DNA of 64,000 bases from Candidatus Roizmanbacteria bacterium (GCA_038127095.1 JAYPGZ010000004.1:16663-80662), one strand, 5' to 3'; positions 14,751 through 62,800 are shown, counted from the first letter of the stretch. Numbers and translations: made by a program. The notes: generated from the sequence alone by a model not told the origin.

Positions 14751-14759
14751 AGAAAATGT

Positions 14760-14768
14760 ATTATATCA
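14760..14768 (-). promoter_or_regulatory. extended -10 (TGaTATAAT), 9 nt from the ATG at 14750
   Basis: The minus strand reads gtgaTATAATacattttctATG. Confidence 0.5.
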
Positions 14769-15595: not shown

Positions 15596-15606
15596 TGTTA
15601 TACAAT
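15596..15606 (+). promoter_or_regulatory. -10 region for the sugar transferase gene (TGtTATACAAT: TACAAT 6 nt, or TATACA 8 nt, from the ATG at 15613)
   Basis: Sequence tgttatacaataggcctATG. Confidence 0.4.
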
Positions 15607-15612
15607 AGGCCT

Positions 15613-18137: not shown

Positions 18138-18141
18138 TTTG

Positions 18142-30711: not shown

Positions 30712-30717
30712 ACGTTT

Positions 30718-30726
30718 AGTATAGCA
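30718..30726 (-). promoter_or_regulatory. extended -10 (TGcTATACT) for the 12-gene glycan operon, 6 nt from the ATG at 30711
   Basis: The minus strand reads ctgcTATACTaaacgtATG. Repeat element copy 4 abuts it upstream. Confidence 0.5.
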
Positions 30727-31707: not shown

Positions 31708-31716
31708 TGCTATACT
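31708..31716 (+). promoter_or_regulatory. extended -10 (TGcTATACT) for glyQS, 7 nt from the ATG at 31724
   Basis: ctgcTATACTttcttttATG. Confidence 0.5.
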
Positions 31717-31723
31717 TTCTTTT

Positions 31724-33100
31724 ATGAATTCGCAAGCTTCATTAGATAAAGTTACTGCTCTTGCTAAGCGCCGGGGATTTATTTATCCTTCATCCGACAT
31801 TTATGGCGGCATGGCAAATAGCTGGGATTTTGGACATTACGGAACACTTCTAAAAAACAATATTCGCGACATGTGGTGGAAACACTATGTTTTGGATCGA
31901 CCTGACATGATAGGAATTGAGGCGAGTATTTTTTTGAACCCAAAAGTATGGCAGGCAAGTGGGCATGTGGCAAACTTCACCGATGCCATGGTTGATTGTA
32001 AAAATTGCAAGACTCGAACACGAGCTGATCATTTAATTGAAGGAGCGCTTAAAGACACAAAGGTTGAAGGTTTGCCTGTTGAAGAACTAACCGAGCTTAT
32101 TAAGAAAAACGCTATTAAATGTCCAAAATGTGGGCTCTCCGACTGGACTGACGTTCGTCAGTTTAACTTACTATTTGAAACAAAATTAGGGATTGTAGAA
32201 AGTGAAAAGTCCCAGGTGTATTTGCGCGGAGAACTGGCACAAGGTATTTTTATTAACTTCAAGAATGTGTTAAATTCCATGCGAGTCAAGCTCCCATTTG
32301 GAATTGCACAAGTTGGTAAGGCTTTCAGAAATGAAATAACCATGGGTCAGTCAGTTCATCGAACGTTAGAGTTTGACTTAATGGAATTTGAGTATTTTAT
32401 TGATCCTAAAAACTGGGAGTCAACATATAATGCGTGGCACGACGATATGTGGCAGTTTGCACTCTCTTTGGGACTAAAGGAGGAAAATCTGCGTTGGCGC
32501 GAGCATGAAGAATTTGAGCGAGCGCACTATTCCAAAAAAACCGCTGATATTGAATATGAATATCCATTTGGGTTTAAAGAAATGTTTGGGATTGCGTACC
32601 GCACCGATTTTGATTTGAAAAACCACATGGAGCAATCAGGGGTAGATATGCACTACACCGATAAAGATGGTAACAAGTACGTTCCGCATGTAGTCGAGCC
32701 TACATTTGGGCTTTCACGACTTGTGGGAGTTGTTTTGACCGATGCGTATTGCGAGGAAAGTGTTGGAGAAAATACTCGTACAGTGCTTAAATTACATCCG
32801 AAACTCGCACCTATTAAAGTTGCCATATTTCCATTGCAAAAAGATGAAAAGCTACAGGCTGAGGCAAAGGAAATATACAACTCATTAAGCAAGCAATTTG
32901 TTTGTGAATTTGATGATGCAGGAAATATTGGAAAAATGTATCGTCGACAAGACGAGATTGGAACACCGTTTTGTATAACGGTTGATTACGAAACTGAATC
33001 AGATGGAAAAGTCACTATACGCGATCGTGACAGCATGAAGCAAGAACGTGTTGAAATCGCTCAACTTTCTGAGTATATTGAAAAAAAGTTAACAATATAA
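31724..33100 (+). CDS. glyQS: glycyl-tRNA synthetase, dimeric (alpha2) class II type
   Basis: RRGFIYPSSDIYGG, GKAFRNEI, EPTFGLSRL, and a C-terminal anticodon-binding domain. Confidence 0.93.
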   Translation: MNSQASLDKVTALAKRRGFIYPSSDIYGGMANSWDFGHYGTLLKNNIRDMWWKHYVLDRPDMIGIEASIFLNPKVWQASGHVANFTDAMVDCKNCKTRTRADHLIEGALKDTKVEGLPVEELTELIKKNAIKCPKCGLSDWTDVRQFNLLFETKLGIVESEKSQVYLRGELAQGIFINFKNVLNSMRVKLPFGIAQVGKAFRNEITMGQSVHRTLEFDLMEFEYFIDPKNWESTYNAWHDDMWQFALSLGLKEENLRWREHEEFERAHYSKKTADIEYEYPFGFKEMFGIAYRTDFDLKNHMEQSGVDMHYTDKDGNKYVPHVVEPTFGLSRLVGVVLTDAYCEESVGENTRTVLKLHPKLAPIKVAIFPLQKDEKLQAEAKEIYNSLSKQFVCEFDDAGNIGKMYRRQDEIGTPFCITVDYETESDGKVTIRDRDSMKQERVEIAQLSEYIEKKLTI

Positions 33101-33584: not shown

Positions 33585-33593
33585 TGATATAAT
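33585..33593 (+). promoter_or_regulatory. extended -10 (TGaTATAAT), 8 nt from the ATG at 33602
   Basis: gtgaTATAATcggctcgtATG. Confidence 0.5.
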
Positions 33594-33601
33594 CGGCTCG
33601 T

Positions 33602-33874
33602 ATGTCGGCTGAGATATTCCATACTATCGGTAAACGAATGGTTAGTCAGCATGTTCCCTCTGAGGGTCGTGTTGAGCTCCCACTAGGTAAAAACGGTACT
33701 ATTGTGTGTACGAGCCTGGGTGGTGTGTCTGAGGTTATGGTTTGGCAATATGATTCAAATCCCTTGCCCGATCACCCAGATTCTTCATGCAGACTACTTG
33801 GTATTGTGCCTCCATCGGGAATGCTGGTTGTCCCCGTGACTCAACGTCAGCGGGTGACCATTCATCATACATAA
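33602..33874 (+). CDS. small hypothetical protein (90 aa), visibly more GC-rich than its neighbours
   Basis: The ORF is supported mainly by the -10 box at the leaderless-type distance. No motif recognised. Confidence 0.45.
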   Translation: MSAEIFHTIGKRMVSQHVPSEGRVELPLGKNGTIVCTSLGGVSEVMVWQYDSNPLPDHPDSSCRLLGIVPPSGMLVVPVTQRQRVTIHHT

Positions 33875-33928: not shown

Positions 33929-33957
33929 TTGACATCGCTCTAAATTGAGCCTAAAAT
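33929..33957 (+). promoter_or_regulatory. dcw-cluster promoter (TTGACA-17-TAAAAT), 8 nt from the mraZ ATG
   Basis: TTGACA at 33929-33934, TAAAAT at 33952-33957, ATG at 33966. Confidence 0.65.
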
Positions 33958-33965
33958 GGTTGTAA

Positions 33966-34364
33966 ATGGCATTTTTTGGTGAATATAAAGTTTCAATAAC
34001 GGCTGGGGGAAGAATAGTGTTACCGAAAAAGATACGAGAACAGGTGAAAGGAGAAGTATTTATACTCACCAAGGGATTTGACGTTTGTCTGGGGGGATAT
34101 GATAAGGCTGATTGGGACAAGCGATCAGATGCACTTTTACAAGTTTCGCTTCTTGACCGAGACGACATCGACCGTCGCCGATACATTTTTTCAGGTGCAC
34201 AAGAAATTGGGCTAGATGAACAAGGACGTTTTGTTATCCCAAAGTCACTAGCAGCATTTTCTGGTGCAAGTTCTGGAGAAGTTGTAATTATCGGTGTTGG
34301 CGACCACTTTGAAATTTGGGAACAAAAACGCTGGAATCAATATTCCAAAGCGACAAAACAATAA
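33966..34364 (+). CDS. mraZ: transcriptional regulator MraZ
   Basis: Two SpoVT/AbrB-like halves (GRIVLPKKIREQ and GRFVIPKSLAAF). First gene of the dcw cluster. Confidence 0.9.
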   Translation: MAFFGEYKVSITAGGRIVLPKKIREQVKGEVFILTKGFDVCLGGYDKADWDKRSDALLQVSLLDRDDIDRRRYIFSGAQEIGLDEQGRFVIPKSLAAFSGASSGEVVIIGVGDHFEIWEQKRWNQYSKATKQ

Positions 34365-35421: not shown

Positions 35422-35427
35422 TATCAT
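35422..35427 (+). promoter_or_regulatory. weak -10-like hexamer (TATCAT), 6 nt from the ftsI ATG
   Basis: ggTATCATagaagtATG. Could be chance. Confidence 0.25.
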
Positions 35428-35433
35428 AGAAGT

Positions 35434-37098
35434 ATGAATAGATTGCTGAGTGTTGCAATATTTTTTAGCGTAATACTATTACTTATAATAGTTCGCTTGA
35501 GTTACATTCAAATTCTTCGCCCAGATTCCTTTTACTCAAACAATTATTTACACACCGATACAATTTCAGCTTCGCGTGGAGAAATCTTTGATCGTAATCG
35601 GGAAGCGTTAGTACTTAATAGAACTACATATCAAGCATTTGCGCTCCCGCAAAAAATTACTGATAAGGAAGCGTTCATTAAAAAAATTGATAGCATACTG
35701 AAAATCGGTGAAGCAACAATCGACGCTAAACTTGATATGTCAAAGCAGTGGATTCCAATAAAGTCAGGAGTGAGCCAGGCAGACAGAAAAAAACTTGCAG
35801 CTCTAAAGCTTGATGCGTTGGGATTTGATGAGCAATCATCTCGATTTTACCCTGAGTCCTCGCTTGCGGCACAACTACTCGGCTTTGTAGGAAAAGATAA
35901 TGAAGGTGACGATATTGGCTATTTTGGTATAGAAGGATTTTACTCACGTGATTTGGCCGGTTTACCTGGTCTTTTTCTTACTGAGCGCGATATGCTTGGT
36001 AAACCAATCTTTGTTGGTACACAAGATATGGTGAGCGGTGAAGATGGACGTGATTTGTATTTGACAATTGATAAAGTAGTTCAGCATATAGCAAAGTCCA
36101 AATTACTGGCAGGGATAGAACGATATCAAGCTAAAGAAGGCTGCGTAATTATTGCTAATCCCAAAACGATGGAAATTCTAGCTCTTACGTGTTTGCCTGA
36201 CTATGATCCAGATCAATATTACAAATTTTCTGAAAGCTATTTTACTAATCCAACTATTACTAATCTTTTTGAACCTGGATCTATTTTCAAACCTCTTATT
36301 GTTGCAAGCGCATTAAATGAAAATGTAATTAAGCCTGACGAAACATTTAATGAAGATGGTCCTGCGATCGTTTCAGGTTACCAAATAAAAACGTGGAACG
36401 ATAAGTACGAAGGCAAAATTACGTTTACCAGGTCGCTCGAAAAGTCTTCTAATGTAGGTATGGTTCGTGTTGGAGAACGATTAGGCGAAAAAAAACTCTA
36501 TGAATATTTGCAGAAATTCGGAGTTGGAGAAGCAACAAATATTGACTTGCAAGGTGAAGTAACGGGGTATTTAAAGCCACAGAAGGATTTTTACAAAATC
36601 GACTTTGCAACGGCAACATTTGGTCAGGGGCTTGTGGTAACACCTATTCAAATGATACGAGCATTTGCGTCGTTACTGAATGGTGGGTATATTATGGAAC
36701 CACATGTTGTTAAAACACTCAAAACAAGCGATGGTAATGTAAAGGATATTAATCCCAAAACTCTTCGAAGAATATTTTCAGACAAAACATCCTTACAAAT
36801 TAGAAATATGCTCAAGCAAACTGTAGAGCATGCCGAGGCAAAATGGGATCGTCCGGCAGGCTACTCAATTGGTGGTAAAACTGGAACTGCGCAGGTTGCA
36901 GTTGAAGGTCAATATGATGCATCAAAAACGGTTGCTTCATTTATTGGGTTTGCACCAGTAGATGATCCCAAATTCGTTGCGCTTGTTATCTATAAAGAGC
37001 CAAAAAGTTCTCCGTGGGGTAGTGAAACAGCAGCGCCTACATTCTTCCAAATCGCAAAAGAGTTGCTAGTTTATTATAATATAGCTCCAGATAAGTAA
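35434..37098 (+). CDS. ftsI: class B penicillin-binding protein (FtsI/PBP2-type transpeptidase)
   Basis: N-terminal TM. SxxK (SIFKP), SxN (KSSNVG), KTGTA. Confidence 0.9.
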   Translation: MNRLLSVAIFFSVILLLIIVRLSYIQILRPDSFYSNNYLHTDTISASRGEIFDRNREALVLNRTTYQAFALPQKITDKEAFIKKIDSILKIGEATIDAKLDMSKQWIPIKSGVSQADRKKLAALKLDALGFDEQSSRFYPESSLAAQLLGFVGKDNEGDDIGYFGIEGFYSRDLAGLPGLFLTERDMLGKPIFVGTQDMVSGEDGRDLYLTIDKVVQHIAKSKLLAGIERYQAKEGCVIIANPKTMEILALTCLPDYDPDQYYKFSESYFTNPTITNLFEPGSIFKPLIVASALNENVIKPDETFNEDGPAIVSGYQIKTWNDKYEGKITFTRSLEKSSNVGMVRVGERLGEKKLYEYLQKFGVGEATNIDLQGEVTGYLKPQKDFYKIDFATATFGQGLVVTPIQMIRAFASLLNGGYIMEPHVVKTLKTSDGNVKDINPKTLRRIFSDKTSLQIRNMLKQTVEHAEAKWDRPAGYSIGGKTGTAQVAVEGQYDASKTVASFIGFAPVDDPKFVALVIYKEPKSSPWGSETAAPTFFQIAKELLVYYNIAPDK

Positions 37099-40587: not shown

Positions 40588-41934
40588 ATGTCACCAGAAG
40601 ATGCATTTATCGTAACAGGAGGGAAGCCAATCAGTGGATCAGTTACTGTGTCTGGTGCAAAAAATGTTGCTTTGAAAGTGGTTATAGCTGCGCTCATGCT
40701 AGAAAAGCCAGTCACACTTAAAAATATTCCACATATTAAGGATATTGAAGAACTTCTCACGCTCATTAGTGGCCTTGGTGGAAAGTGGGAGTTTGTTGCT
40801 AAAAATACGCTTTTGGTCGATGGAACATCTCTTTCGCACGATACTGTTGATTTGTTATACGGGTCCAAAATACGCGTTTCATTCATGATGTTTGCCCCTC
40901 TTTTATATCGACTCGGCACTGCGCTTATTCCAAATCCGGGTGGATGTCGTATAGGAGCTCGCTCAATTGATAGAGTTATTGATATGATGAAGCAATTTGG
41001 AGTGAGTGTTCAATACAATTCAAAAACAGGCTACTATACTGCAACTCGAAACACCGATCAATTTAAGGCTATTAATTATCGGTTTGATAAAAAAACACAT
41101 ACAGGAACAGAATTGGCGCTTCTTTTTGCGGCATGTGCACAGGGTACTACAACACTCGAAAATTGTGCGCTTGAGCCTGAAATTGATGATCTTATCGATT
41201 TTTTGAATATGAATGGTGCAAAGATTAAACGTGCCCAAGACTCTATAGTTATCAATGGGGTTAAGGAATTAAGCAATCGAAGTAGTGTGGGTGAATTTAC
41301 CATTATGGGTGATAGAAATGAAGCAGTTACGTATGCTGTACTTGCGCTGGCAACAAAAGGTGATATTACTGTTTACGGTGCTGATGCAAAACACTTGGGC
41401 CCATTTGTTGAAAAAGTACGCGAAGCTGGCGGAGGAATTGAGGAGAAAAAAAATGCTATTCGTTTTTATTTTAAAAAGGATCTTCAACACACCTATGTTG
41501 TTACCTTACCACATCCGGGTTTTATGACTGATTGGCAGGCTCCATGGGCTGTTCTTATGACTCAGGCACATGGTAAATCAACGCTCCATGAAACAGTTTT
41601 TGAAAGTCGATTTGGATATGTTAAGGAATTAAAAAAAATGGGTGCATCAATTACTTTTTTTCAACCTCAGTTAGAAGATCCTCACCATACATACCAATTC
41701 AAGAGTAGTAAAAACAAAGTATATAAAAATCAAGCAATTGAAATTACGGGTAATACTCCATTACATAATGCCGTGCTTAAAGTGACCGACATGAGAGCGG
41801 GGGCAAGTTTAATTATCGCTGCACTTATTGCTACTGGGGAGTCAGTGGTAGATGGAGCCACAATTATTGATCGAGGATATGAAGATATTGTTGAAAAATT
41901 AACTGGATTGGGTGCTTCTATTCGTCGAGTATAA
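40588..41934 (+). CDS. murA: UDP-N-acetylglucosamine 1-carboxyvinyltransferase
   Basis: VSGAKNVALKVVIAAL; catalytic Cys loop NPGGCRIGARSID. I prefer ATG 40588, 4 nt after the murB stop, over the track start at 40558. Confidence 0.92.
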   Translation: MSPEDAFIVTGGKPISGSVTVSGAKNVALKVVIAALMLEKPVTLKNIPHIKDIEELLTLISGLGGKWEFVAKNTLLVDGTSLSHDTVDLLYGSKIRVSFMMFAPLLYRLGTALIPNPGGCRIGARSIDRVIDMMKQFGVSVQYNSKTGYYTATRNTDQFKAINYRFDKKTHTGTELALLFAACAQGTTTLENCALEPEIDDLIDFLNMNGAKIKRAQDSIVINGVKELSNRSSVGEFTIMGDRNEAVTYAVLALATKGDITVYGADAKHLGPFVEKVREAGGGIEEKKNAIRFYFKKDLQHTYVVTLPHPGFMTDWQAPWAVLMTQAHGKSTLHETVFESRFGYVKELKKMGASITFFQPQLEDPHHTYQFKSSKNKVYKNQAIEITGNTPLHNAVLKVTDMRAGASLIIAALIATGESVVDGATIIDRGYEDIVEKLTGLGASIRRV

Positions 41935-41935
41935 A
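41930..41935 (+). promoter_or_regulatory. -10-like hexamer (TATAAA), 6 nt from the HAD gene ATG at 41942
   Basis: gagTATAAAactattATG. Overlaps the murA stop. Confidence 0.3.
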
Positions 41936-41941
41936 ACTATT

Positions 41942-42508
41942 ATGAAATTACTACTAATGGATCTTGACGATACGCTCATTGACACTGCCGCATTTAAACA
42001 TGCACTTTTTCAAAAAATAGCAAGCGTATATGAAATTGATATAGAGCATGTTTTAACTGTGTATCAAGAGTACAGATCAAGGCTTGATATGGATGATTGG
42101 ATATACGACTTTACCATGGCTTTTGATCAGGAAGTATGGTTTTCAAGTAAGGACTTAGGTCGTATGGGTATTCCTATTGTTGCTCACAAAGAAATGGTAG
42201 AGTTTGTAAAGAAATTTACTGGCACTAAGGTTATTTTTTCGTTAGGAAATATTAAACTCCAAAAACAAAAAATAGAGGTTGCACAATTGCGTAATCTATT
42301 TAATAGTATAATAATCACCAATAAATCAAAAATAGACGTGCTTGCTGCATGGGCAACAAACGGGGCTCTGGTAATTGACAATGTTGAATATAAAGATGTT
42401 GTTTTAGTAGATGATAATGAGAAGTTTCTCGAACAGGTACGAGAATTATTTCCATGGATTATTACGCTTAATCCTAGCCAGATGATTACAAAACCAATTC
42501 AAAACTAA
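41942..42508 (+). CDS. HAD-superfamily hydrolase/phosphatase
   Basis: Motif I MDLDDTLIDT; late VLVDDN motif. 188 aa from ATG 41942. Confidence 0.7.
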   Translation: MKLLLMDLDDTLIDTAAFKHALFQKIASVYEIDIEHVLTVYQEYRSRLDMDDWIYDFTMAFDQEVWFSSKDLGRMGIPIVAHKEMVEFVKKFTGTKVIFSLGNIKLQKQKIEVAQLRNLFNSIIITNKSKIDVLAAWATNGALVIDNVEYKDVVLVDDNEKFLEQVRELFPWIITLNPSQMITKPIQN

Positions 42509-46090: not shown

Positions 46091-46096
46091 TATAAT
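46091..46096 (+). promoter_or_regulatory. -10 box (TATAAT), 6 nt from the ATG at 46103
   Basis: gtgTATAATgaggatATG. The track start at 46088 is the GTG immediately before the box. Confidence 0.4.
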
Positions 46097-46102
46097 GAGG
46101 AT

Positions 46103-47449
46103 ATGCAAAAGGCCACAGTTTTTGAATTTTCTTCCATAACTCCTGATTGGAGTAAAAAAATCATTGCTTTTGAATACACAATATACTTCGAAGATGGAAA
46201 AAAACTTGTTTTTACGGAAAGAATTGGTCTTCCTGCAGTTCCATTTGTAGTTCATCACGATAGTGAAGCAGTTATTGCTGCCCTCGAAGCGCTCCATTTA
46301 ATAATCGGCGTGAGTTATTACAAACTATATTGCCCTGAAACGATTACCGCACCCCACTACAAGTTATCTGCTCAACAGGCGACATTCTGGAATACTGTGT
46401 ATACAAAGGGCTTGGGCGAATTTTTCTATCAGAATAAGATGCAATTTAAAGATCTTGTCAATTTTCCCGTACATACGCACCCGCCTAAACTCTCACATGG
46501 CTTTCATAAGAAGTCTGGGAAGTCGCTTGTATTAATAGGAGGTGGAAAAGACTCGTTGGTAACAGGTGAACTAGTAAAACAAGCAGGACATAAAATCACT
46601 GCTCTGTATTCACACCCAATTCAAGAACGTTCTTTAGAAGTTTTGGGAATTTCAGGTTTAAAATTTTCGCGCTCAATTGATCCCCAACTATTTACGCTTA
46701 ATAGTCTTCCTTTTACGCAGAATGGACATGTGCCAATTACTGCTCTTTTATCGTTTTTAGGAGTTCTGTGTGCGGTGCTTTATGGATTTGATAATGTTAT
46801 TCTTTCAAATGAACGCAGCGCAAATTATGGCAATATCGACTACCTGGGAAAGGAAATCAATCATCAGTGGAGTAAGTCGATTGAATGTGAAAAGCTATTA
46901 AGTGATTATGTGTCAAATTATGTTTGTCCTGGCGTTACGTATTTTTCACTTTTAAGACCTTTTTATGAAATAAAAATCGTACAGATATTTACACAATTTC
47001 CCAAATATTTTCCGGTCTTTGCAAGTTGTAATAGAAACTTCAAGCAACAAAATGATGGGTCTAAGAATTGGTGCGGTGAATGCCCAAAGTGTGCATTTGT
47101 GTTTGCATTATTGAGTGCGTACGTTCCAAAGATAAAGCTTGTAGATATTTTCGGAAAAAATTTGTTTGATGACCCTCAGCTTCTTGATACATATAAAGAA
47201 CTATTAGGAGTTATTAATAGTAAGCCATTTGAATGTGTCGGAACGCCTCATGAAACAATGTATGCAATGCACGAAGCGTACAAATGGGGAGAATATGCTC
47301 AAACGCCAGTAATGCAATACTTCAATCAAGAAGTTATGCCAACTATTCCTGATATTTCTTCTATTGAAAAAGAAGTGTTATCGTACGGTGATGATAGTAA
47401 TATTCCCGACGAATTTAAAACCATAGTGAAAGAGTATGCTCATAAGTAA
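46103..47449 (+). CDS. PP-loop-like ATPase-fold protein with a C-terminal Cys cluster; candidate MurL-type UDP-MurNAc-L-Ala-L-Glu epimerase
   Basis: GGGKDS at nt 46538-46555 (PP-loop SGGxDS variant). C-x14-C-x2-C-x2-C (SCN...WCGECPKC, last three Cys at 47072-47092). Sits between mraY and murD and overlaps murD by 14 nt. Confidence 0.4.
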   Translation: MQKATVFEFSSITPDWSKKIIAFEYTIYFEDGKKLVFTERIGLPAVPFVVHHDSEAVIAALEALHLIIGVSYYKLYCPETITAPHYKLSAQQATFWNTVYTKGLGEFFYQNKMQFKDLVNFPVHTHPPKLSHGFHKKSGKSLVLIGGGKDSLVTGELVKQAGHKITALYSHPIQERSLEVLGISGLKFSRSIDPQLFTLNSLPFTQNGHVPITALLSFLGVLCAVLYGFDNVILSNERSANYGNIDYLGKEINHQWSKSIECEKLLSDYVSNYVCPGVTYFSLLRPFYEIKIVQIFTQFPKYFPVFASCNRNFKQQNDGSKNWCGECPKCAFVFALLSAYVPKIKLVDIFGKNLFDDPQLLDTYKELLGVINSKPFECVGTPHETMYAMHEAYKWGEYAQTPVMQYFNQEVMPTIPDISSIEKEVLSYGDDSNIPDEFKTIVKEYAHK

Positions 47450-51528: not shown

Positions 51529-52803
51529 ATGACAGATCGAATTATTTCAGGAATTGACATTGGAACGAGCAAAACTGCTGTATTAATTGCCAAGATAGGA
51601 GATGAAGAATCACAGCCACGCATTATGGGTTTTGCTTCTGTGCCGTCAAAAGGGGTACGAAAAGGTCAAATAGTCGATATTAACCAGGTAACCCAAACAG
51701 TTGAATCTGCAATAGATAAAGCTGAGCGTATGGCAGGTACTAAAATCTCCAATGCGCTCGTAAGTGTGGGCGGACCTCATATTGAATCGCTCAATTCGCA
51801 TGGTGTGGTTGCGGTAGCTCAGCCTGAAGTTGAAATCTCGAACGAAGATATTGATCGTGTGGTTGATGCGGCCAAAGCTATTTCAATTTCTTCGACACGA
51901 GAAGTTATTGAAGTAGTCCCTCGAGAATTTATTGTTGATGGTCAAGGTGGGATAAAAAATCCAATTGGAATGAGCGGCGTACGTCTTGAAGTGAATACGC
52001 ATATTATTACTGCAAGTTTAACAAATTTGCGTAATATCGATCGATGCTTGTCAGATCTGGGAGTCGATAATCAGGTCTCAATTTTTTCCGGCCTCAGTTC
52101 TTCTTTGGCAGCATTGTCAGATACTGAAAAAGAGTTGGGTGTTGTTTGTGTTGATATAGGAGGCGGTAAAACCGACATCTGTATTTATGTAGAAGGTGCG
52201 CTGTCCTATTCTTCTTCAATTCCTATTGGGGCACGTCATATAACCAATGATATTGCGGTTGGTTTGCGCGTGTCACTCGATTCTGCAGAACAAATCAAAA
52301 TGCATCTTTCAAAGCCTCATAAAGAATCAACAACTCATACTCGAACCGAAGATGAAATTAACATATCGAGCTTGAATTTGCCAGAAGGCTTGACTAAAAT
52401 TTCTCGAAAAACAGTTGTAGAAGGCATTATTCGTCCTCGATTGGAAGAAATTTTTGCCTATGTCTTAAAGCAGATTGAAAAAAGTGGATTTATTACCGCG
52501 GTTCCTTCTGGACTCGTAGTTGTTGGTGGGGGAGCATTAACTGTTGGCGTGCTTGAAAGTGCTCGTCGTTCAGTTGGATTGCCTGCCCGACTAGGTACGC
52601 CTCAAAATGTTACTGGTTTAGTCGATGAGGTTTTGTTTCCCCAATATGCAACTGTTGTAGGATTGTTGCTGTATTCAAATAATGAGCAAGTTCAAGATGG
52701 TCAAAAAATATCTATGAAGAGTTTTGATAAAATGCTCAAAAATATGTCGTTCCAAGGATCGGTAAAGAAAATACAAGACATGGTAAAGTCGTTTATGCCA
52801 TGA
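51529..52803 (+). CDS. ftsA: cell division protein FtsA
   Basis: Actin-fold motifs GIDIGTSKTAVLIA, VCVDIGGGKTDI, VVVGGGALTVG. Confidence 0.93.
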   Translation: MTDRIISGIDIGTSKTAVLIAKIGDEESQPRIMGFASVPSKGVRKGQIVDINQVTQTVESAIDKAERMAGTKISNALVSVGGPHIESLNSHGVVAVAQPEVEISNEDIDRVVDAAKAISISSTREVIEVVPREFIVDGQGGIKNPIGMSGVRLEVNTHIITASLTNLRNIDRCLSDLGVDNQVSIFSGLSSSLAALSDTEKELGVVCVDIGGGKTDICIYVEGALSYSSSIPIGARHITNDIAVGLRVSLDSAEQIKMHLSKPHKESTTHTRTEDEINISSLNLPEGLTKISRKTVVEGIIRPRLEEIFAYVLKQIEKSGFITAVPSGLVVVGGGALTVGVLESARRSVGLPARLGTPQNVTGLVDEVLFPQYATVVGLLLYSNNEQVQDGQKISMKSFDKMLKNMSFQGSVKKIQDMVKSFMP

Positions 52804-52809
52804 TATACT
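52801..52809 (+). promoter_or_regulatory. extended -10 (TGaTATACT), 10 nt from the ftsZ ATG
   Basis: The TG belongs to the ftsA TGA stop. TATACT at 52804-52809, ATG at 52820. Confidence 0.45.
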
Positions 52810-52819
52810 AACCAAAACT

Positions 52820-53974
52820 ATGCTCATTAAACCCAATGCTGGACAGCCAGCGAAAATTAAAGTAGTAGGTATTGGAGGCGGTGGAGGAAATGCCCTCGCT
52901 ACGATGATAGCGCAAGAAGATATTAAGGGCGTTGAATTCATTGTGATGAATACCGACGCACAGGCTTTGCTTGCTCATGCTGCCGATACCAAAATACAAA
53001 TAGGCGATAACCTGACGAAAGGTTTGGGATCCGGAGGTAATCCAGATGTTGGACAGCGAGCGGCGGAAGAATCTCGAGAAAAAATTAAGGAAGCGCTCGA
53101 AGGGGCAGGCATGGTATTTATTGCTGCTGGTGAAGGTGGAGGTACAGGTACAGGAGCAGCGCCTATTGTTGCGGAAGTAAGTAGAGAGACTGGAGCATTA
53201 ACAGTGGCTGTTGTTACCAAGCCTTTTTCATTTGAAGGTAATCGTCGTAAACTTACTGCACAAGATGGCATTGATCGCCTTCGAGATAAGGTAGACACAC
53301 TCATTGTTATACCAAACCAAAAGGTGCTCGAAATTATTGATACCAAGGTAAGCATGATTGATGCGTTCAAAAAGGTCGATTCTGTATTGCATCAGGGAGT
53401 AAAAGGTATAGCAGAGCTTATTACTGTTCCAGGTCTTATAAACGTTGACTTTGCCGATGTGCGCTCGATTATGAAAGATGCCGGTACAGCGCTTATGGGT
53501 ATTGGTACAGGAACAGGTGAAAAACGAGTGCAAAGCGCAGTAAAACAGGCAATTTCTTCTCCACTGCTTGAAGCTTCAATACAAGGAGCAAAAGGAGTGC
53601 TATTTAATGTAATAGGAGGTCCTGATCTTTCAATGGCAGAAGTAGACGAAGCAGCATCTATTCTACAAAAAACAGTTGATCCGGATGCGGAAATTATTTT
53701 TGGTGCGGTAATCCAGGAAAAAATGGCTGGCGATGTAAAAATAATTGTTATTGCGACTAAGTTTGATGAGCAACGACTACATTTTGCTAATCAGTATTCG
53801 GGTATGTATGACGAAAATGATGAAGATAAAGCCACGGTCGATGAAGATGAGGCAACAGTTGCATCGGTGCGCCCAGATAATAATGAAACACCAAAAGCTC
53901 GTCCAGTTCAAACAACTAATTCCGACATGGACGACGATGAATTCGATATTCCCACATTTCTGAGAAAAAAATAA
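52820..53974 (+). CDS. ftsZ: cell division GTPase FtsZ
   Basis: GIGGGGGNA, tubulin signature GGGTGTGAAP, C-terminal peptide DDEFDIPTFLRKK. Confidence 0.98.
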   Translation: MLIKPNAGQPAKIKVVGIGGGGGNALATMIAQEDIKGVEFIVMNTDAQALLAHAADTKIQIGDNLTKGLGSGGNPDVGQRAAEESREKIKEALEGAGMVFIAAGEGGGTGTGAAPIVAEVSRETGALTVAVVTKPFSFEGNRRKLTAQDGIDRLRDKVDTLIVIPNQKVLEIIDTKVSMIDAFKKVDSVLHQGVKGIAELITVPGLINVDFADVRSIMKDAGTALMGIGTGTGEKRVQSAVKQAISSPLLEASIQGAKGVLFNVIGGPDLSMAEVDEAASILQKTVDPDAEIIFGAVIQEKMAGDVKIIVIATKFDEQRLHFANQYSGMYDENDEDKATVDEDEATVASVRPDNNETPKARPVQTTNSDMDDDEFDIPTFLRKK

Positions 53975-54730: not shown

Positions 54731-54739
54731 TGCTATAAT
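54731..54739 (+). promoter_or_regulatory. extended -10 (TGcTATAAT), 7 nt from the ileS ATG
   Basis: ttgcTATAATtacactcATG. Confidence 0.5.
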
Positions 54740-54746
54740 TACACTC

Positions 54747-57530
54747 ATGTTTAAACCTACAGAACCGAACTTGAACATTCCGCAAATGGAGGAAGAAATT
54801 CTCTCGTTCTGGAAGGAAAACAATACTTTTCAAAAGTCTGTTGAAAATCGTCCGGCGGATAAGCTATGGACATTTCTTGATGGGCCCCCATTCATAACAG
54901 GTCTCCCACATTATGGAACTCTCTTACCAAGTATTGCAAAAGATCTGTTTCCTCGATTCTGGACAATGAAAGGGTATCGAGTTCGACGTGTGTGGGGTTG
55001 GGATTGTCATGGTCTTCCCGCTGAGAATAAAGTGGAAAATAAACTGGGAATTAAGCGCAAAAAAGATATTGAAGAAAAAATCGGCGTTAAAAAATTCATT
55101 GATGAATGCAAGCTTTATGTGAGTGACGTTTCAAGTGAATGGGAATGGTACATTGACCATGTTGCTCGATGGGTCGATTTTAAGCATGCGTATAAAACAA
55201 TGGATTTGCCATACATGGAGAGTGTTATGTGGGTGTTTAAGCAAATGTATGATAAGGATCTTATTTATAAGGGTCTTCGAGTATCGTTGTACTGTCCGCA
55301 CTGTTCCACGCCAATCTCTAACTTTGAAGTTGCTATGGATGGAGATAATTATCAAACAGTTACAGAGCCAGGGACCGTGTATAAATATAAACTACTAGAT
55401 GAAGATGTATATTTGCTTGCATGGTCAACTACTCCATGGACAAAACTTGTAACCACAGCACTTGCTGTCAATCCTAAACTTGAATATTCAAAAGTCTCTC
55501 AGAATAATGAAACATATATATTAGCTTCTTCCACTCTTGCAATGCTTAAAGGAGAATATACCGTAGTGGAGCGATTCACAGGAGACAAACTAATCGATAA
55601 AAAATTCGAAGGTCATTATGATTTCTTTGGTCACGAGGAGGGAAAGCGACTTTTTGAAGTTGTTGGAGCCGATTTTGTAACCGAAGGTGATGGAACGGGA
55701 ATTGTTACGCTTGCAGCATACGGAGAAGATGATATGGCCGCTATGAAAGAATTCAACATTCAAGTAGCCTTGCACTTGGATGACGAGGGGAAATTTATCG
55801 AAACGGTTCCACAATGGGCCGGCAAGTACTATTTAGATGTTAACGAGGAGATTGATAAGGAACTTGAAGGCAGAGGACTGGTGTATGCAACAGATCCGTA
55901 TGAGCATACTGTTCCAACATGTTGGCGATGTCATACTCGATTAATTTACTCGCCTCAAGATGCATGGTATGTCAATGTTCAAAAGCTCAAGACACAATTG
56001 CTTGAAACAAACAAGTCGGTAAACTGGTTTCCTGATCATTTCAAGCACGGACGTTTTGAAAAGAGTCTTCAGGCTGCTCCAGATTGGTGTATTTCACGCA
56101 GTCGTTATTTTGGATCTCCGGTTCCTGTGTGGGAATGTGGCAATGGTCATCGATTTGTGCCAGGCTCTATAGCCGAACTTGAAGAACGTTCAGGTGTGAA
56201 AGTGACCGATTTGCATAAGCCCGTTATTGATGAAGTTGTCGTACCGTGTAGCGAATGTGATCAAGTTGCGCATAGAGTATCTGAGGTGCTTGATAGCTGG
56301 ATCGAAGCAGGTAGTGCTCCCTATGGAGAACGCCACTATCCATTTGGTGAAGAAAAAGATTTAGCCAAATTTTTTCCTCCAGATTTTATCGTTGAATATA
56401 CGGGGCAAATTAGAGCGTGGTTTTATGTATTGCATGTAATTTCCAACTCATTGTTTGAAACACATGCATTTAAAAATGTTGTGGTGAATGGAGTAATATT
56501 GGGAACCGATGGGCGAAAAATGAGTAAGAACTTTGGTAACTATCCTGATCCAAAAGAGCTTCTTTCCAAATATGGCGGCGATGCATTGCGTTTGTATTTC
56601 ATGGCTTCACCGGTAATGCGTGGAGAAGACATTGTAATTTCTGAAGAAGATTATAAGAATCAAATACGTGCAACCTTACTTCCAATTATCAATATCTATA
56701 GTTTTTTTGCAATGTATGCAAACACAGCACATTGGACTCCATCAGTCAAATCTATTAATGAACTAGAACTACACGTGCTCGATCGGTGGATTCTTTCACG
56801 TTTAGGAACACTTGAAAAAACGATGACAGATTCATTAAATGCGTATGACACAGCTACAGCAATTACCTCGTTACGAGAATTTGTTGACGATTGGTCAAAG
56901 TGGTATATTAGACGAAGTCGTGATCGAGTTGGAGAAGTGTTCTATGAAACAACCTATTATGTACTTACGAATTTTGCAAAATTAGTTGCACCAGTAATTC
57001 CATTTACTGCAGAATACTTATATAAACGATTAACAACAAGTGATTCGGTACACTTGCAAAACTGGCCAGAAGAAAATACCCAATACATTAACAAAGATCT
57101 TGAAGGGAGTATGAAACTTGCTCGATCGCTCGTAGAAGAGGGTCATGCGTTTCGCAAGAAGAATGCATTTAAGGTTCGAAAGCCGCTTCTTACGTTGGCG
57201 TTAGAATCACACGAAGGAGTTGAGCATATTACAGATGAGATTTGGGCAATTGTGCTCGAGGAATTAAATGTGAAAAATATTTCAGTAGGTGATTTTCACT
57301 ATCCAAAGGTGCCAGTTCAGGTCACTCAACAGGAACTTGATGATGAAGAAACGGTGCGTGATTTGATTCGATCAATTCAACAAGAACGCAAAATTCTTGG
57401 ATTGTTACCGGGAGATAAAGTGTCTTTAGTTTTACCCACATACCCAAAGAAATTTGAAGAATTTATTATGAAAAAGGTTTTAGCTACTTCTATTGAGACT
57501 GGAGAAAAACTACTAGTCGTCAAAGTTTAG
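54747..57530 (+). CDS. ileS: isoleucyl-tRNA synthetase (type 2-like)
   Basis: LDGPPFITGLPHYGT (HIGH region), WGWDCHGLPAE, editing-domain WSTTPWT, KMSKNFGNYPDP (KMSKS region). Confidence 0.9.
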   Translation: MFKPTEPNLNIPQMEEEILSFWKENNTFQKSVENRPADKLWTFLDGPPFITGLPHYGTLLPSIAKDLFPRFWTMKGYRVRRVWGWDCHGLPAENKVENKLGIKRKKDIEEKIGVKKFIDECKLYVSDVSSEWEWYIDHVARWVDFKHAYKTMDLPYMESVMWVFKQMYDKDLIYKGLRVSLYCPHCSTPISNFEVAMDGDNYQTVTEPGTVYKYKLLDEDVYLLAWSTTPWTKLVTTALAVNPKLEYSKVSQNNETYILASSTLAMLKGEYTVVERFTGDKLIDKKFEGHYDFFGHEEGKRLFEVVGADFVTEGDGTGIVTLAAYGEDDMAAMKEFNIQVALHLDDEGKFIETVPQWAGKYYLDVNEEIDKELEGRGLVYATDPYEHTVPTCWRCHTRLIYSPQDAWYVNVQKLKTQLLETNKSVNWFPDHFKHGRFEKSLQAAPDWCISRSRYFGSPVPVWECGNGHRFVPGSIAELEERSGVKVTDLHKPVIDEVVVPCSECDQVAHRVSEVLDSWIEAGSAPYGERHYPFGEEKDLAKFFPPDFIVEYTGQIRAWFYVLHVISNSLFETHAFKNVVVNGVILGTDGRKMSKNFGNYPDPKELLSKYGGDALRLYFMASPVMRGEDIVISEEDYKNQIRATLLPIINIYSFFAMYANTAHWTPSVKSINELELHVLDRWILSRLGTLEKTMTDSLNAYDTATAITSLREFVDDWSKWYIRRSRDRVGEVFYETTYYVLTNFAKLVAPVIPFTAEYLYKRLTTSDSVHLQNWPEENTQYINKDLEGSMKLARSLVEEGHAFRKKNAFKVRKPLLTLALESHEGVEHITDEIWAIVLEELNVKNISVGDFHYPKVPVQVTQQELDDEETVRDLIRSIQQERKILGLLPGDKVSLVLPTYPKKFEEFIMKKVLATSIETGEKLLVVKV

Positions 57531-58577: not shown

Positions 58578-58606
58578 TTGCGATCAGGCGGTAAATCGAT
58601 TATAAT
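58578..58606 (+). promoter_or_regulatory. promoter (TTGCGA-17-TATAAT), 6 nt from the rplU ATG
   Basis: TTGCGA at 58578-58583, TATAAT at 58601-58606, ATG at 58613. Confidence 0.65.
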
Positions 58607-58612
58607 TACTCT

Positions 58613-58921
58613 ATGAAACTTGCAGTTGTTAAAACAGGAGGAAAACAATACGTGGTTGGCGCAGGAGATACTATTGTAGTAGATAGTATTCACGCTGAGG
58701 CAGGTAAAACTGTTGAACTTGATTTGTTGGCACTTCTTGATAACGAAAAATTAACAGTAGATTTAGGAACTCCTCTTTTGAAAACTAAGGCTAAAGCCAC
58801 CGTTATTGATCATGTGAAAGGCGATAAAGTGCACGTAGCTCGTTTTAAAGCTAAGACTCGTTATCGAAAAGCACGCGGTTTTCGAGCACAACTTACCCAG
58901 TTAAAAGTCGAATCATTTTAA
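58613..58921 (+). CDS. rplU: 50S ribosomal protein L21
   Basis: MKLAVVKTGGKQYVV..., KAKTRYRKARGFR. Confidence 0.93.
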   Translation: MKLAVVKTGGKQYVVGAGDTIVVDSIHAEAGKTVELDLLALLDNEKLTVDLGTPLLKTKAKATVIDHVKGDKVHVARFKAKTRYRKARGFRAQLTQLKVESF

Positions 58922-59261: not shown

Positions 59262-59267
59262 TATACT
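59262..59267 (+). promoter_or_regulatory. -10 box (TATACT), 6 nt from the ATG at 59274
   Basis: tataTATACTaaataaATG. Confidence 0.4.
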
Positions 59268-59273
59268 AAATAA

Positions 59274-59819
59274 ATGCGAGTAAATGTTGAAGAGGTTCTA
59301 AGGACAATTCATGAACAGTCCGACCCGATAGTTCAAGCAGAGCTTATTGAAAAAGCTGTAAATGCAGGAATTCGCGTGGTGCAAATTGCACATGAACTCG
59401 ATATGTCTTCATCATACGTAAGTCATTTGCGTCGTCTAAAAAAGTTGCCCCCGCTTATTATTAATGGTTATTATGATAAAACGATTTCACTTAGTCATCT
59501 GTTTATACTATCGCGTCTAACTACGCCAGAAGAAATGATAAGCACCTATGAAGAAGTACTTACTCAGAATTTATCTGCTGCACAAACGGAAAGAAGAGTG
59601 TTTGAGAGAATGTCTGGCAAGCAAATACAGGGAAAAAAACTTTCTAAAGAATGGTTCGATGATCTTGGTAACGTATTTAAAGGTATTTCCTCGACAATTT
59701 CAGTTACCGCTATTCAAACTCGCCGTAAAGGCGAAATCGTTCTTACATTCAATGGATCTCTCGAGCAAACGAGTGCACTGTTTGAAAAAATCAAGACTCA
59801 CTTAAAAAAGGATTCGTAA
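59274..59819 (+). CDS. ParB/Spo0J-like HTH protein lacking the N-terminal ParB (CTP-binding) domain
   Basis: aa 20-85 match the ParB HTH pattern (QAELIEKAVNAGIRVVQIAHELDMSSSYVSHLRRLKKLPPLIINGYYDKTISLSHLFILSRL). There is nothing upstream of it in the ORF. Confidence 0.5.
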   Translation: MRVNVEEVLRTIHEQSDPIVQAELIEKAVNAGIRVVQIAHELDMSSSYVSHLRRLKKLPPLIINGYYDKTISLSHLFILSRLTTPEEMISTYEEVLTQNLSAAQTERRVFERMSGKQIQGKKLSKEWFDDLGNVFKGISSTISVTAIQTRRKGEIVLTFNGSLEQTSALFEKIKTHLKKDS

Positions 59820-60357
59820 CAGGTCCCATATTGGAGACTGGAAAATAACGGTAAATTACTTTTCCAATTATATTTACTTGAGGTATAAATCCGAATTCAC
59901 GAGAATCTGAAGAATGTGTGCGATTGTCACCTAATACAAATACATAGTCTTGTGGAACAGTAACCTCTTCTCCTTCTTGCATAAACCCTGTTTGAAATGT
60001 TTTGGTTGGTTCCGTGATGTATGGTTCTTCAAGAAGTGCTCCATTTCGATATACGTGTTCTTTTTGTATTTTGATTCGATCTCCTGGCACTCCAATTATT
60101 CTCTTCACAAAATCGACCTCACTATTGCTCAAAGAGGCAAAAACAATAATATCGCCATATTTGGGTTTGTCTAGTCGGTATGCTATTTTACTGGTAAGAA
60201 TATAGTCGTGAGTTTGGAATGTTTTTTCCATAGATGCGCCTTGAACCTGATTGGGCGCAATAATGAATAGATATAAGACAATAAACAGAGAGCCAACAAA
60301 GACTACTGTTTCAAGAATATCCATGACAAAATCTATCAGGCGTTTTACGACTTGCAT
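59791..60357 (-). CDS. lepB: signal peptidase I
   Basis: N-terminal TM, catalytic GASMEKTF (SMxPT-like), KRIIGVPGD, GDNRTHSSDSREFG. Start at ATG 60357 (M3) is favoured by the -10 spacing. Confidence 0.9.
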   Translation of the reverse strand: MQVVKRLIDFVMDILETVVFVGSLFIVLYLFIIAPNQVQGASMEKTFQTHDYILTSKIAYRLDKPKYGDIIVFASLSNSEVDFVKRIIGVPGDRIKIQKEHVYRNGALLEEPYITEPTKTFQTGFMQEGEEVTVPQDYVFVLGDNRTHSSDSREFGFIPQVNIIGKVIYRYFPVSNMGPVTNPFLSES

Positions 60358-60363
60358 ACGCAT

Positions 60364-60392
60364 ATTTTAGAAGAGTTGAAAGTAAAAAACAA
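60364..60392 (-). promoter_or_regulatory. lepB promoter (TTGTTT-17-TAAAAT), 6 nt from the ATG at 60357
   Basis: Minus strand: TTGTTT at 60387-60392 and TAAAAT at 60364-60369. Back-to-back with the tRNA-Val -10. Confidence 0.45.
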
Positions 60393-60490: not shown

Positions 60491-62761
60491 TTAGGCGAGG
60501 AAGTAGTTTCTGCGAGCGATAATAAATCCAAGAAGTAAGAGTCCTATGACCGTTATAGTAGGATAGTTTTTTTGAGCAAGCTTTTCCTGACACTCTTTGT
60601 CGCACTTTGCTAGTTTAGGTTTCGATTCGGTTTTTGCCTTTGCAACAGTCTTTTGCGCACCTTTTACTGCTCCATACCCGCTATATGTACCTTGTGTGGT
60701 ATTTGCTGCAGTTGGAAGCAGGGTACCGCCGAGTAAGCTTACTGCAGGAGAGTTGGTAGTTGCATTAGTAGTAGAAGTACTTGTAGTGCTATTGCTTGCT
60801 GATCCTGAGTTGCTTTCTGATCGTTTATTAATGCGTACCATTGCCGTTGAGTTGTTGTTGCTGTAATTTGCTTCGCTGCGCGAGCTACTAATGCTTGCGG
60901 TGTTTGCTAAATCTGATTGCTCAAGTGAACTGTCAGTCTTCACCATAACTGAGACCGCTCCTGTTTGTCCTGGTTCAAGGCGTCCGATATTCCACGTAAC
61001 GGTATTTCCTGCTACAGTTGATCCTGCCGGTGTTCCAAGAAGTGTTAGCTGTGCAGGTAAGGAATCGACTATTTTTACATTGTCTGTAAATGTATTTCCA
61101 AAATTTCCGTACGCAATGGTGTAGGTGAAATTATCACCGGCATTGTGACTTGGTTGGTCAACCATTTTAGAAACTACCAGTTCTGGTCGTGGGAAAATAA
61201 TGTTTCCGACAAAATCATCAAAAATATTTATTACGGCAAAAAACCAGTTGTCTCCGGTGATATTAGTATTGCCCATGGTAACTATATTTGCATTTGTTTG
61301 AGCATTGCCAGTATTTATTGAGGCGTTGAACCGACCGGCTTCATTTCGTCCGGTATTGGACAGTAGGTTAATATTATTATCTACAGTTAAATTATTCGTG
61401 TTTTCAATAACAACTGTAGACTTATTTAATTGATTTGCATTGCTTTGCAAGGAGTCACCCGTATTTGTAATGAGTGTGGAATAAAGGTTTGGCGCAGAAG
61501 GATTACCTGCTTGTGGAATAAGCATATATGAGCTATCTAAACCAATAACTTGACCATCCCATTTTCCATACCGATTAATTAATAGAATAAAGAAATTATT
61601 CGCTAAATAATTCGAATTGACCATGTCGATAACATTGTGGCTACTGTTTGCGTCACCGGTCACAATTGATCCGAGCGTATTGAAATTAACAGTATCGATC
61701 ATTACGTTGTCACCTGTTGTATTGGAACTAGCTACACGCTCAGTAACAGTAGCATTATTGGTATTTTTTATTATTGTTTCTTTTTCATTAGTGACAGACT
61801 GATTGACTTGTGTGCTGTTACCAGTGTTGGTAACCTGCGATCCGAAAATAAGTGGGGTAAAACTGTTGTGTAATACATCTAGTTCATACGGTAAAATAAT
61901 GTCTCCATGTTGGCTGCCAAATAAGTTGATAACCCCATAGAAGTAGCAATTTCCAACCAGATTTGTGTTTGCCATTGTAAATAAGTTAAGAGCGGAATAT
62001 GCATCGCCTGTATTGACTGAAGTTCCTGAAGATATGTTATTTATCGCAGAATTATCTCCAGTGTTTGATGTAAGGGTAATATCATTCTGAATAGTAGCAT
62101 TATTATTGTTTCTGATGACAAGTTCTGAGTTAGTTGTAGAAGTATCGATGAGCTTTACGTTATTTCCTGAGTTTTCAATGGTAAATGATTCTGGAGTAAC
62201 AATTGTTCCAGGAGCAAAACACGGTACAATAGAAGATAGGTTAATGTCTTGATTGCTGTCTTCAAAAACGTCCTTAATAACGACTGCTGCACTTTGTGCA
62301 ACTACGTTTGTATTTACTACAGTTGAAATGTTCTGAACAGTTTGCGCGTCTCCAGTAGTTATGGAATTTGTTCCGCCATTGAGAGCGATATTGTCAGTAA
62401 GGGTATTGTCGCCAGTATTGTTAGTAGCATCTATTGAGCGATCAATATCCGCATTATTCGTATTTTCAATTGTAGTCTCAAGGGTATTAGTTTCAGATGT
62501 GGTAACTACAACGTCGTTTCCAGTATTTGTTTCATAAGTAACTTCTTCTGGAGTAATTATAAGTGTCGCCGAATCGGTGGCTGATGTGTCAGTCGTTATC
62601 TGTTCATCTGTTCCAGCTTGATCGGTTACGGTTGGAGTCGGTGTTGGTTGCGTAATTTCTTCAGCAAGAATAGGGGAAAGCGAATTTAAAAAAATGCAAA
62701 AAATAATCAAGACCGATACTATTTTTTGAGTTGTCGTAGAAGTTGCAATACGGGTTATCAT
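60491..62761 (-). CDS. large surface protein: signal/anchor, Thr/Pro linker, four ~100-aa Asn-rich repeats, DUF11-like domain, Ser/Thr/Asn-rich stalk, C-terminal TM with RR tail
   Basis: Start at ATG 62761 (MITRIATSTTTQKIVSVLIIFCIFLNSLSPILA). Repeats at nt ~61190-62539 each carry TNTGN..(E/K)NTNNA..NTGDN..TGDA..NTN. DUF11-like LVVSKMVDQP...WNIGRLEPGQTGAVSVMVK at ~60935-61180. C-terminal ITVIGLLLLGFIIARRNYFLA. Confidence 0.75.
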   Translation of the reverse strand: MITRIATSTTTQKIVSVLIIFCIFLNSLSPILAEEITQPTPTPTVTDQAGTDEQITTDTSATDSATLIITPEEVTYETNTGNDVVVTTSETNTLETTIENTNNADIDRSIDATNNTGDNTLTDNIALNGGTNSITTGDAQTVQNISTVVNTNVVAQSAAVVIKDVFEDSNQDINLSSIVPCFAPGTIVTPESFTIENSGNNVKLIDTSTTNSELVIRNNNNATIQNDITLTSNTGDNSAINNISSGTSVNTGDAYSALNLFTMANTNLVGNCYFYGVINLFGSQHGDIILPYELDVLHNSFTPLIFGSQVTNTGNSTQVNQSVTNEKETIIKNTNNATVTERVASSNTTGDNVMIDTVNFNTLGSIVTGDANSSHNVIDMVNSNYLANNFFILLINRYGKWDGQVIGLDSSYMLIPQAGNPSAPNLYSTLITNTGDSLQSNANQLNKSTVVIENTNNLTVDNNINLLSNTGRNEAGRFNASINTGNAQTNANIVTMGNTNITGDNWFFAVINIFDDFVGNIIFPRPELVVSKMVDQPSHNAGDNFTYTIAYGNFGNTFTDNVKIVDSLPAQLTLLGTPAGSTVAGNTVTWNIGRLEPGQTGAVSVMVKTDSSLEQSDLANTASISSSRSEANYSNNNSTAMVRINKRSESNSGSASNSTTSTSTTNATTNSPAVSLLGGTLLPTAANTTQGTYSGYGAVKGAQKTVAKAKTESKPKLAKCDKECQEKLAQKNYPTITVIGLLLLGFIIARRNYFLA

Positions 62762-62771
62762 GTAAGCCCGT

Positions 62772-62800
62772 ATTATAAAACATTGGCTATTATATTTCAA
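62772..62800 (-). promoter_or_regulatory. promoter (TTGAAA-17-TATAAT), 10 nt from the ATG at 62761
   Basis: Minus strand: TTGAAA at 62795-62800 and TATAAT at 62772-62777. The TTG of the -35 is the spurious track start codon. Confidence 0.65.

Follow-up and report, generated by a model that had tools for sequence, protein, structure and literature searches.

Where does the transcript of a gene begin when a −10 element ends only 6 nucleotides (nt) ahead of the start codon? The question is raised by rplU, which lies within a 64,000-nt stretch of Candidatus Roizmanbacteria bacterium (GCA_038127095.1 JAYPGZ010000004.1:16663-80662), hereafter the window, a very compact region of 38% G+C that carries approximately 60 genes and three tRNAs. 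Upstream of rplU on the plus strand, TTGCGA (58578 to 58583) is followed by a 17-nt spacer, TATAAT (58601 to 58606), the six bases TACTCT, and the ATG at 58613. An earlier inspection of the window, here called the sequence-only reading, had listed rplU among 20 genes with a −10-like hexamer ending 6 to 10 nt before the ATG, and all 20 hexamer/ATG pairs were recovered with coordinates, strands, and gaps exactly as described. Leaderless mRNAs are known in Actinobacteria, Deinococcus, and archaea. We conclude that sigma-70-type promoters very probably abut the ATG of such genes, such that their mRNAs would be leaderless or carry leaders of 1 to 4 nt, and that genes internal to transcription units would be translated by stop/start coupling.

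A lone hexamer near a lone ATG is weak evidence because loose hexamers, defined as a five-of-six match with A2 and T6 fixed, are so common, with 857 on the two strands of the window. ATGs counted downstream of all 857 gave a flat profile without enrichment because the hexamers swamp the signal, and gene-centered and strict-motif tests were used instead. A generic scan of the window for promoters and terminators also found no overall excess relative to shuffled sequence and was uninformative on position. For the gene-centered test, 59 window open reading frames (ORFs) were each started, blind to the motif, at their first in-frame ATG, and the gap was taken as the number of nt between the end of the hexamer and the A of the ATG. 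A hexamer was found at a gap of 6 to 10 nt in 17 of the 59 genes, where 3.0 were expected (P = 2e-8) from the 0.6 matches per position at gaps of 11 to 45 nt, and matches at gaps of 6, 7, 8, 9, and 10 nt numbered 7, 4, 2, 2, and 2, respectively. When any in-frame ATG within the first 45 codons was allowed, 19 genes had a hexamer at a gap of 6 to 10 nt, compared to 3 to 7 in shifted control windows. Moreover, the window contains nine perfect TGnTATA[AC]T motifs, and six of them ended 6 to 10 nt ahead of a gene ATG (P about 1e-14). As a negative control, 100 kb of Escherichia coli K-12 was passed through the same pipeline, and a hexamer at such a gap was found in 1 of 83 genes.

A search with the IleS protein of the window found relatives solely among Patescibacteria/candidate phyla radiation (CPR) genomes of the Microgenomates (Levy-, Roizman-, Gottesman-, Davies-, Woese-, and Curtissbacteria). 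Eighty loci (L001 to L080), each from a different species and together 1.33 Mb long, provided an independent data set; L001 and L002 came from close relatives with IleS 88 to 90% identical, and the IleS proteins of the remainder were 55 to 62% identical. The 1,094 heuristic gene calls in these loci, each started at the first ATG, were divided into divergent genes, genes with an upstream gap of at least 40 nt, genes with an upstream gap of 5 to 39 nt, and coupled genes (less than 5 nt). A hexamer at a gap of 6 to 9 nt preceded 102 of 270 divergent genes (about 15 expected; P = 1e-49), 94 of 337 wide-gap genes (about 13 expected; P = 1e-46), and 66 of 168 short-gap genes (about 8 expected; P = 1e-37), and coupled genes were at background, with 5 of 229 (6.9 expected; P = 0.81). 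All non-coupled genes together gave 262 of 775 against about 36 expected, or 28 to 39% by class. The onset was sharp, as the divergent and wide-gap classes each rose from 2 genes at a gap of 5 nt to 35 to 39 genes at a gap of 6 nt, and each labeled candidate phylum of the Microgenomates was positive, with 29 to 56% of non-coupled genes compared to 0 to 12% in controls. The sequence-only reading had proposed that the distance distribution be compared with internal-gene and shifted-window controls, and that comparison came out in its favor both in the window and in the 80 related species.

A peak of this kind could also arise as an artifact if starts were assigned as the first ATG after an in-frame stop and the stop was a TAA inside the hexamer. 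That source was rejected because a T or a C occupied position 3 of the hexamer at about 80% of the sites, and because homology-defined starts led to the same outcome and coupled genes lacked the peak. Homology-defined starts, obtained by extrapolating tblastn alignments of the window proteins to residue 1, placed a hexamer at a gap of 6 to 10 nt in 42 of 45 orthologs of ileS, 44 of 65 of rplU, 23 of 46 of lepB, and 4 of 4 of the PP-loop ORF. Most ileS orthologs with an N terminus of another length again had a −10 element directly ahead of their own ATG, and the rplU promoter region was nearly invariant in L001 and L002, with divergent flanks.

Seven starts had been moved to an internal ATG on the guidance of the motif, and five of these were tested, of which four were supported by independent evidence and the fifth was favored. 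In L001 and L002, an in-frame TAG separates the upstream GTG from the ATG chosen for the PP-loop ORF (M6), the first ATG of lepB is not conserved in the same two relatives, in agreement with M3, and the comparison with them revealed indels in the sequence upstream of M14 of the surface protein. M13 of recO aligns with the first position of the Pfam RecO_N profile. M43 of the sugar transferase is the favored case, being the first ATG of an ORF whose longer, GTG-started version overlaps tRNA-Pro on the other strand. Consistent with two of these choices, lepB (188 amino acids [aa]) and the surface protein (756 aa) were called at the same lengths on independent contigs that also encode RplU.

The arrangement also depended on the identity of the start codon. 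Among the relatives, a hexamer at a gap of 6 to 9 nt preceded 34% of ATG and 18% of GTG candidates, and 4 to 7% of TTG, CTG, ATT, and ATA candidates, with controls at 3 to 5%. In L001 to L080, 146 in-frame GTG codons preceded the first ATG, and 26 of these had a hexamer 6 to 9 nt upstream compared to 3% in the control, a signal that ATGs 3 nt downstream could partly inflate, and TTG candidates in the same loci had no excess. Leaderless genes that start with GUG have been reported for mycobacteria, and some of the leaderless genes predicted here may start in the same way.

Promoter elements that played no part in the selection of the hexamers were also found at fixed positions. Alignment of 289 near-start hexamers from the relatives indicated a −35 element of TTGaaa at a 17-nt spacer (T−35, 0.62; T−34, 0.51; G−33, 0.46; A−31, 0.51), a preferred T at −17 (0.61), and an extended −10 element (T−15, 0.52; G−14, 0.48), none of which was seen around 5,279 control hexamers within coding sequence. 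The aligned sites therefore have the −35 box at 17 ± 1 nt, the optional TG, and the −10 box that characterize sigma-70/sigma-A promoters, and the element responsible would be a housekeeping promoter with a −35 TTGaaa, a 17-nt spacer, and an often extended TRTGn-TAnAAT −10. The ileS promoter in many species, for example, reads cTTGAAg, 17 nt, cTACAAT, tgaagct, ATG. When the 20 window cases were scored with a position weight matrix trained solely on distant relatives, 16 had P values per position below 1e-3, and mraZ and ftsI were at about 1.2e-3 to 1.4e-3.

The position of the promoters predicts where transcription would begin. The commonest gap was 6 nt, which makes the A of the ATG the 7th base past the −10 element. 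Transcription begins about 7 bp after the −10 element across 49 bacteria (PMC12641261), and a spacing of 6 to 8 nt between the Pribnow box and the start codon is a recognized signature of leaderless transcription (PMC6028130). With initiation about 7 nt past the −10 element, the transcript 5′ end is predicted to fall at the A of the ATG for gaps of 6 and 7 nt. tRNA genes provided an internal calibration. Of the 54 tRNAs of the window and L001 to L080, 23 had a −10-like hexamer 9 to 12 nt ahead of the mature 5′ end, including all three window tRNAs (upstream regions 14846 to 14905 and 15553 to 15612 on the minus strand, and 60352 to 60411). That spacing predicts a leader of about 2 to 5 nt for removal by RNase P, and its difference from the protein-coding peak at 6 nt ties the offset of 6 specifically to the ATG.

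Shine-Dalgarno (SD) motifs were at background. GGAG or GAGG occurred at −20 to −4 in 6 to 10% of genes in any class compared to 4 to 10% in an in-gene control, and the same crude test gave 36% in E. coli. No G-rich or purine-rich positional peak was found before coupled or non-leaderless genes in the window or in L001 to L080, and same-strand junctions were mostly ATGA overlaps (82 cases) and gaps of 1 to 4 nt. No 16S gene was found in the window or in any of the 80 loci; reduced detection of the anti-SD has been reported solely in a subgroup of Parcubacteria (Tsurumaki et al. 2022, PMC9297842). We infer that ribosomes would load by direct recognition of a 5′-terminal AUG, because a ribosome-binding site would not fit ahead of the AUG in the predicted mRNAs, and that downstream genes, which also lack SD motifs, would probably be translated by termination-reinitiation at overlapping or abutting stop and start codons.

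How general the arrangement is was less clear-cut than the sequence-only reading had proposed when it made leaderless initiation the default for the first genes of operons. In the window the claim stood: of 14 clear heads, 10 had the arrangement, as did 5 of the 12 short-gap genes and 1 of the 27 coupled ones. In the relatives it extended to about one-third to one-half of first genes (heads, 37%; short-gap genes, 45%; coupled genes, 4%, which is background), and the fractions are not genome-wide, as all 80 loci surround ileS and sample a restricted range of gene families repeatedly. Among relatives' heads with a strong promoter within 150 nt, leaderless-type positions exceeded leadered positions by 98 to 57, 94 to 69, and 66 to 17 in the three classes, or about 60% of the heads with a recognizable promoter, counts that are indicative only, as the matrix used for the split was trained on the same loci. 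Leadered genes are also present in the window, for example at 30827, where TGTATAAT lies 31 nt upstream. Several further points weigh against uniformly leaderless transcription. Gaps of 8 to 10 nt would yield leaders of 1 to 4 nt and are not strictly leaderless, and some relatives of rplU have gaps of up to about 16 nt, that is, short leaders and not none. The hexamers of the hydrolase (TTTAAT) and the HAD gene (TATAAA) scored about 0.015 on the matrix, no better than chance. Finally, a transcription start at the ATG is a prediction from sequence.

One alternative is that the promoters are real but secondary, with most transcripts leadered or polycistronic from upstream and the leaderless isoform a minor one, and it would apply mainly to genes 4 to 39 nt behind another. 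The earlier description of all 20 genes as heads following an intergenic gap or a change of direction failed for recO, HAD, ftsI, hydrolase, ftsZ, and ileS, which lie 4 to 18 nt behind the stop of a same-strand gene and could be reached by read-through from upstream promoters. This alternative also draws on the ftsZ arrangement, which was conserved in just 3 of 36 orthologs and counts against the abutting promoters more generally, and on the lack of any excess of terminator-like sites in the window scan. Divergent and wide-gap heads, however, have nothing upstream to read through from and show the same peak, the short-gap class had the largest excess of all (42%), and a full −35/−10 promoter preceded ileS in 42 of 45 species. 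We consider it improbable that the promoters are secondary.

The remaining alternatives concern the nature of the motif. A lineage without SD motifs might be expected to use another signal, and TAnAAT, being A/T rich and located at the position of a ribosome-binding site, could be a non-SD translation signal on leadered mRNAs like that of the Bacteroidetes (GeneMarkS-2 "group B"). The group B motif, however, also precedes internal genes (PMC6028130), and coupled genes here were at background; moreover, translation has no use for a TG extension or for a −35 TTG placed at a 17-nt spacer, and the same motif was found ahead of tRNA genes. We regard a translation signal as very unlikely. Still less credence, close to none, is given to chance in an A/T-rich genome combined with start codons picked to fit the motif. 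The abundance of the 857 hexamers, the flat hexamer-centered count, and a generic scan no better than shuffled sequence are in keeping with chance, seven starts were indeed chosen with the motif in mind, and two of the cases are at chance level. But the enrichment persisted with motif-blind starts, at the P value given above for the window and at 1e-37 to 1e-49 in the relatives, shifted windows granted equal freedom fell well short of the 19 genes, homology-defined starts agreed, and the E. coli control was negative. Promoters abutting the start codon are the reading that we retain.

The mechanism itself is known and is not surprising. GeneMarkS-2 uses the very same signature to define its "group C" genomes, mostly Actinobacteria and Deinococcus-Thermus (PMC6028130). 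As in group C members such as Mycobacterium tuberculosis, Streptomyces, and Deinococcus deserti, the Pribnow box here lies 6 to 8 nt from the starts of first genes and is absent before internal genes, the share of leaderless units (about 25 to 50% in group C) is comparable (PMC6028130), and ATG, possibly with GTG, serves as the 5′-terminal start. Unlike group C, in which internal and leadered genes use SD motifs (PMC6028130), SD motifs here are at background in every class, and the arrangement is found in a tiny, low-GC (38%) CPR genome with frequent TG extensions and recognizable −35 boxes. Near absence of SD motifs throughout the lineage is shared with the Bacteroidetes of group B, but those place one non-SD motif before all genes on leadered mRNAs, whereas the sole positioned motif here is the promoter, and it precedes non-coupled genes only. 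In archaeal "group D" (Haloferax and Sulfolobus), transcription of most operon-first genes likewise begins at the start codon, with limited use of SD motifs, but the archaeal TATA box lies about 22 to 26 nt upstream (PMC6028130) and not at the 6 to 9 nt of the bacterial −10/−35 promoters found here. No report of leaderless organization in the CPR, Patescibacteria, Saccharibacteria, or Microgenomates was found in a literature search of incomplete coverage, and the Prokaryotic Genome Annotation Pipeline (PGAP) uses GeneMarkS-2 internally. The mechanism of group C thus appears unreported in the CPR in a setting without SD use, and the twist is the combination of leaderless heads with a near-total lack of SD motifs.

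We tentatively extend these findings, with confidence that falls just short of even, to an essentially SD-free regime in the Microgenomates and possibly the wider CPR. The promoter would set the translation start, internal genes would be translated only via coupling, tRNAs would have leaders of 2 to 5 nt, tRNA processing may occasionally create mRNA 5′ ends, and the whole would go with reduced ribosomes. The CPR is a large, mainly uncultured share of bacterial diversity with reduced ribosomes, and the predictions are useful for annotation, genetic tools, and minimal translation systems. Provided that first genes lack leaders and that SD motifs go unused, the −10 box can improve start codon annotation in the CPR. 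Expression cassettes for the few cultivable CPR bacteria should have the ATG joined directly to the promoter, with no added E. coli-style ribosome-binding site. In the absence of a leader, almost no control based on a 5′ untranslated region would be possible at such genes, and the lineage would provide a natural test of whether initiation at a 5′-terminal AUG plus coupling suffices for an entire bacterial proteome. The 20 window cases are listed in Table 1.

Table 1. Hexamer/ATG pairs of the window, with spans in window coordinates, distances between elements in nt, and per-position P values from the matrix trained on distant relatives
Gene	Span	Strand	Arrangement	Matrix P	Remark
serS	219..234	+	TATAAT, 7 nt, ATG 232	3e-4	
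hydrolase	4374..4391	+	TGtTTTAAT, 6 nt, ATG 4389	0.015	Weak, probably chance; within the 15 nt that follow the upstream stop
ABC ATPase	7705..7722	−	TGcTACAAT, 6 nt, ATG 7707	2e-4	
ftsH	11884..11904	−	TGcTAAAAT, 9 nt, ATG 11886	7e-5	Divergent head
DsbA-like	14748..14768	−	TGaTATAAT, 9 nt, ATG 14750	5e-5	
sugar transferase	15601..15615	+	TACAAT, 6 nt, ATG 15613	3e-4	ATG is M43 of the long ORF
recO	18106..18144	+	TTGTCA, 18 nt, TACAAT, 6 nt, ATG 18142	1e-4	ATG is M13; −10 overlaps upstream stop
GT2 glycosyltransferase	30709..30726	−	TGcTATACT, 6 nt, ATG 30711	3e-4	ATG is M8
glyQS	31708..31726	+	TGcTATACT, 7 nt, ATG 31724	1e-4	
orf90	33585..33604	+	TGaTATAAT, 8 nt, ATG 33602	3e-5	
mraZ	33929..33968	+	TTGACA, 17 nt, TAAAAT, 8 nt, ATG 33966	1.2e-3	Borderline
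ftsI	35422..35436	+	TATCAT, 6 nt, ATG 35434	1.4e-3	Borderline
HAD	41930..41944	+	TATAAA, 6 nt, ATG 41942	0.017	Chance level; hexamer includes the TAA stop of the upstream gene
PP-loop ORF	46091..46105	+	TATAAT, 6 nt, ATG 46103	9e-4	ATG is M6
ftsZ	52801..52822	+	TGaTATACT, 10 nt, ATG 52820	2e-4	−10 overlaps ftsA stop; kept only in close relatives
ileS	54731..54749	+	TGcTATAAT, 7 nt, ATG 54747	4e-5	
rplU	58578..58615	+	TTGCGA, 17 nt, TATAAT, 6 nt, ATG 58613	2e-4	
ParB-HTH protein	59262..59276	+	TATACT, 6 nt, ATG 59274	5e-4	
lepB	60355..60392	−	TTGTTT, 17 nt, TAAAAT, 6 nt, ATG 60357	2e-4	ATG is M3
surface protein (DUF11)	62759..62800	−	TTGAAA, 17 nt, TATAAT, 10 nt, ATG 62761	8e-6	ATG is M14

Two arrangements involve the tRNA genes of the window. 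The extended −10 element of the DsbA-like gene, TGATATAAT (region 14760 to 14845, minus strand), starts 3 nt past the 3′ end of tRNA-Met, which places its −35 region within the tRNA gene. On the same strand, tRNA-Pro (15481/2 to 15552; region 15474 to 15567) has a TATAAT 9 nt ahead of its mature 5′ end and is followed by a 197-aa ORF without a Pfam match (14883 to 15476), the ATG of which, at 15476, lies 5 nt past the discriminator base of the tRNA and has no −10 element of its own. Cotranscription of the two and processing of the tRNA 3′ end would yield a near-leaderless mRNA. In mitochondria, release of mRNAs by tRNA processing is known as tRNA punctuation; the case here is a single one, predicted from sequence, and the bulk of the phenomenon in the window and its relatives depends on promoters.

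Further observations were made on the ileS loci. Many of the closest relatives were deposited as "uncultured Gammaproteobacteria bacterium", apparently by default at submission. Their IleS proteins are 55 to 90% identical to that of the window and they sit among named Microgenomates metagenome-assembled genomes, and these records look mislabeled. In L013, L018, L037, L041, and L042, a G+C-rich hairpin followed by a run of five to seven T residues ends at the ileS ATG, and in L042, TTGACA and TATAAT are found in and around the hairpin. A T-box leader was considered for these five loci and rejected, as Rfam gave neither a T-box nor any other family at the gathering score. The hairpins have the appearance of an attenuator or of a terminator in which a promoter is embedded.

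A perfect inverted repeat, TACGGG-cttacATGataa-CCCGTA (62749 to 62772, minus strand), surrounds the start codon of the DUF11 surface protein gene and may fold into a regulatory hairpin where a near-leaderless mRNA would begin. The repeat is identical in L001 and L002 despite their differing flanks.

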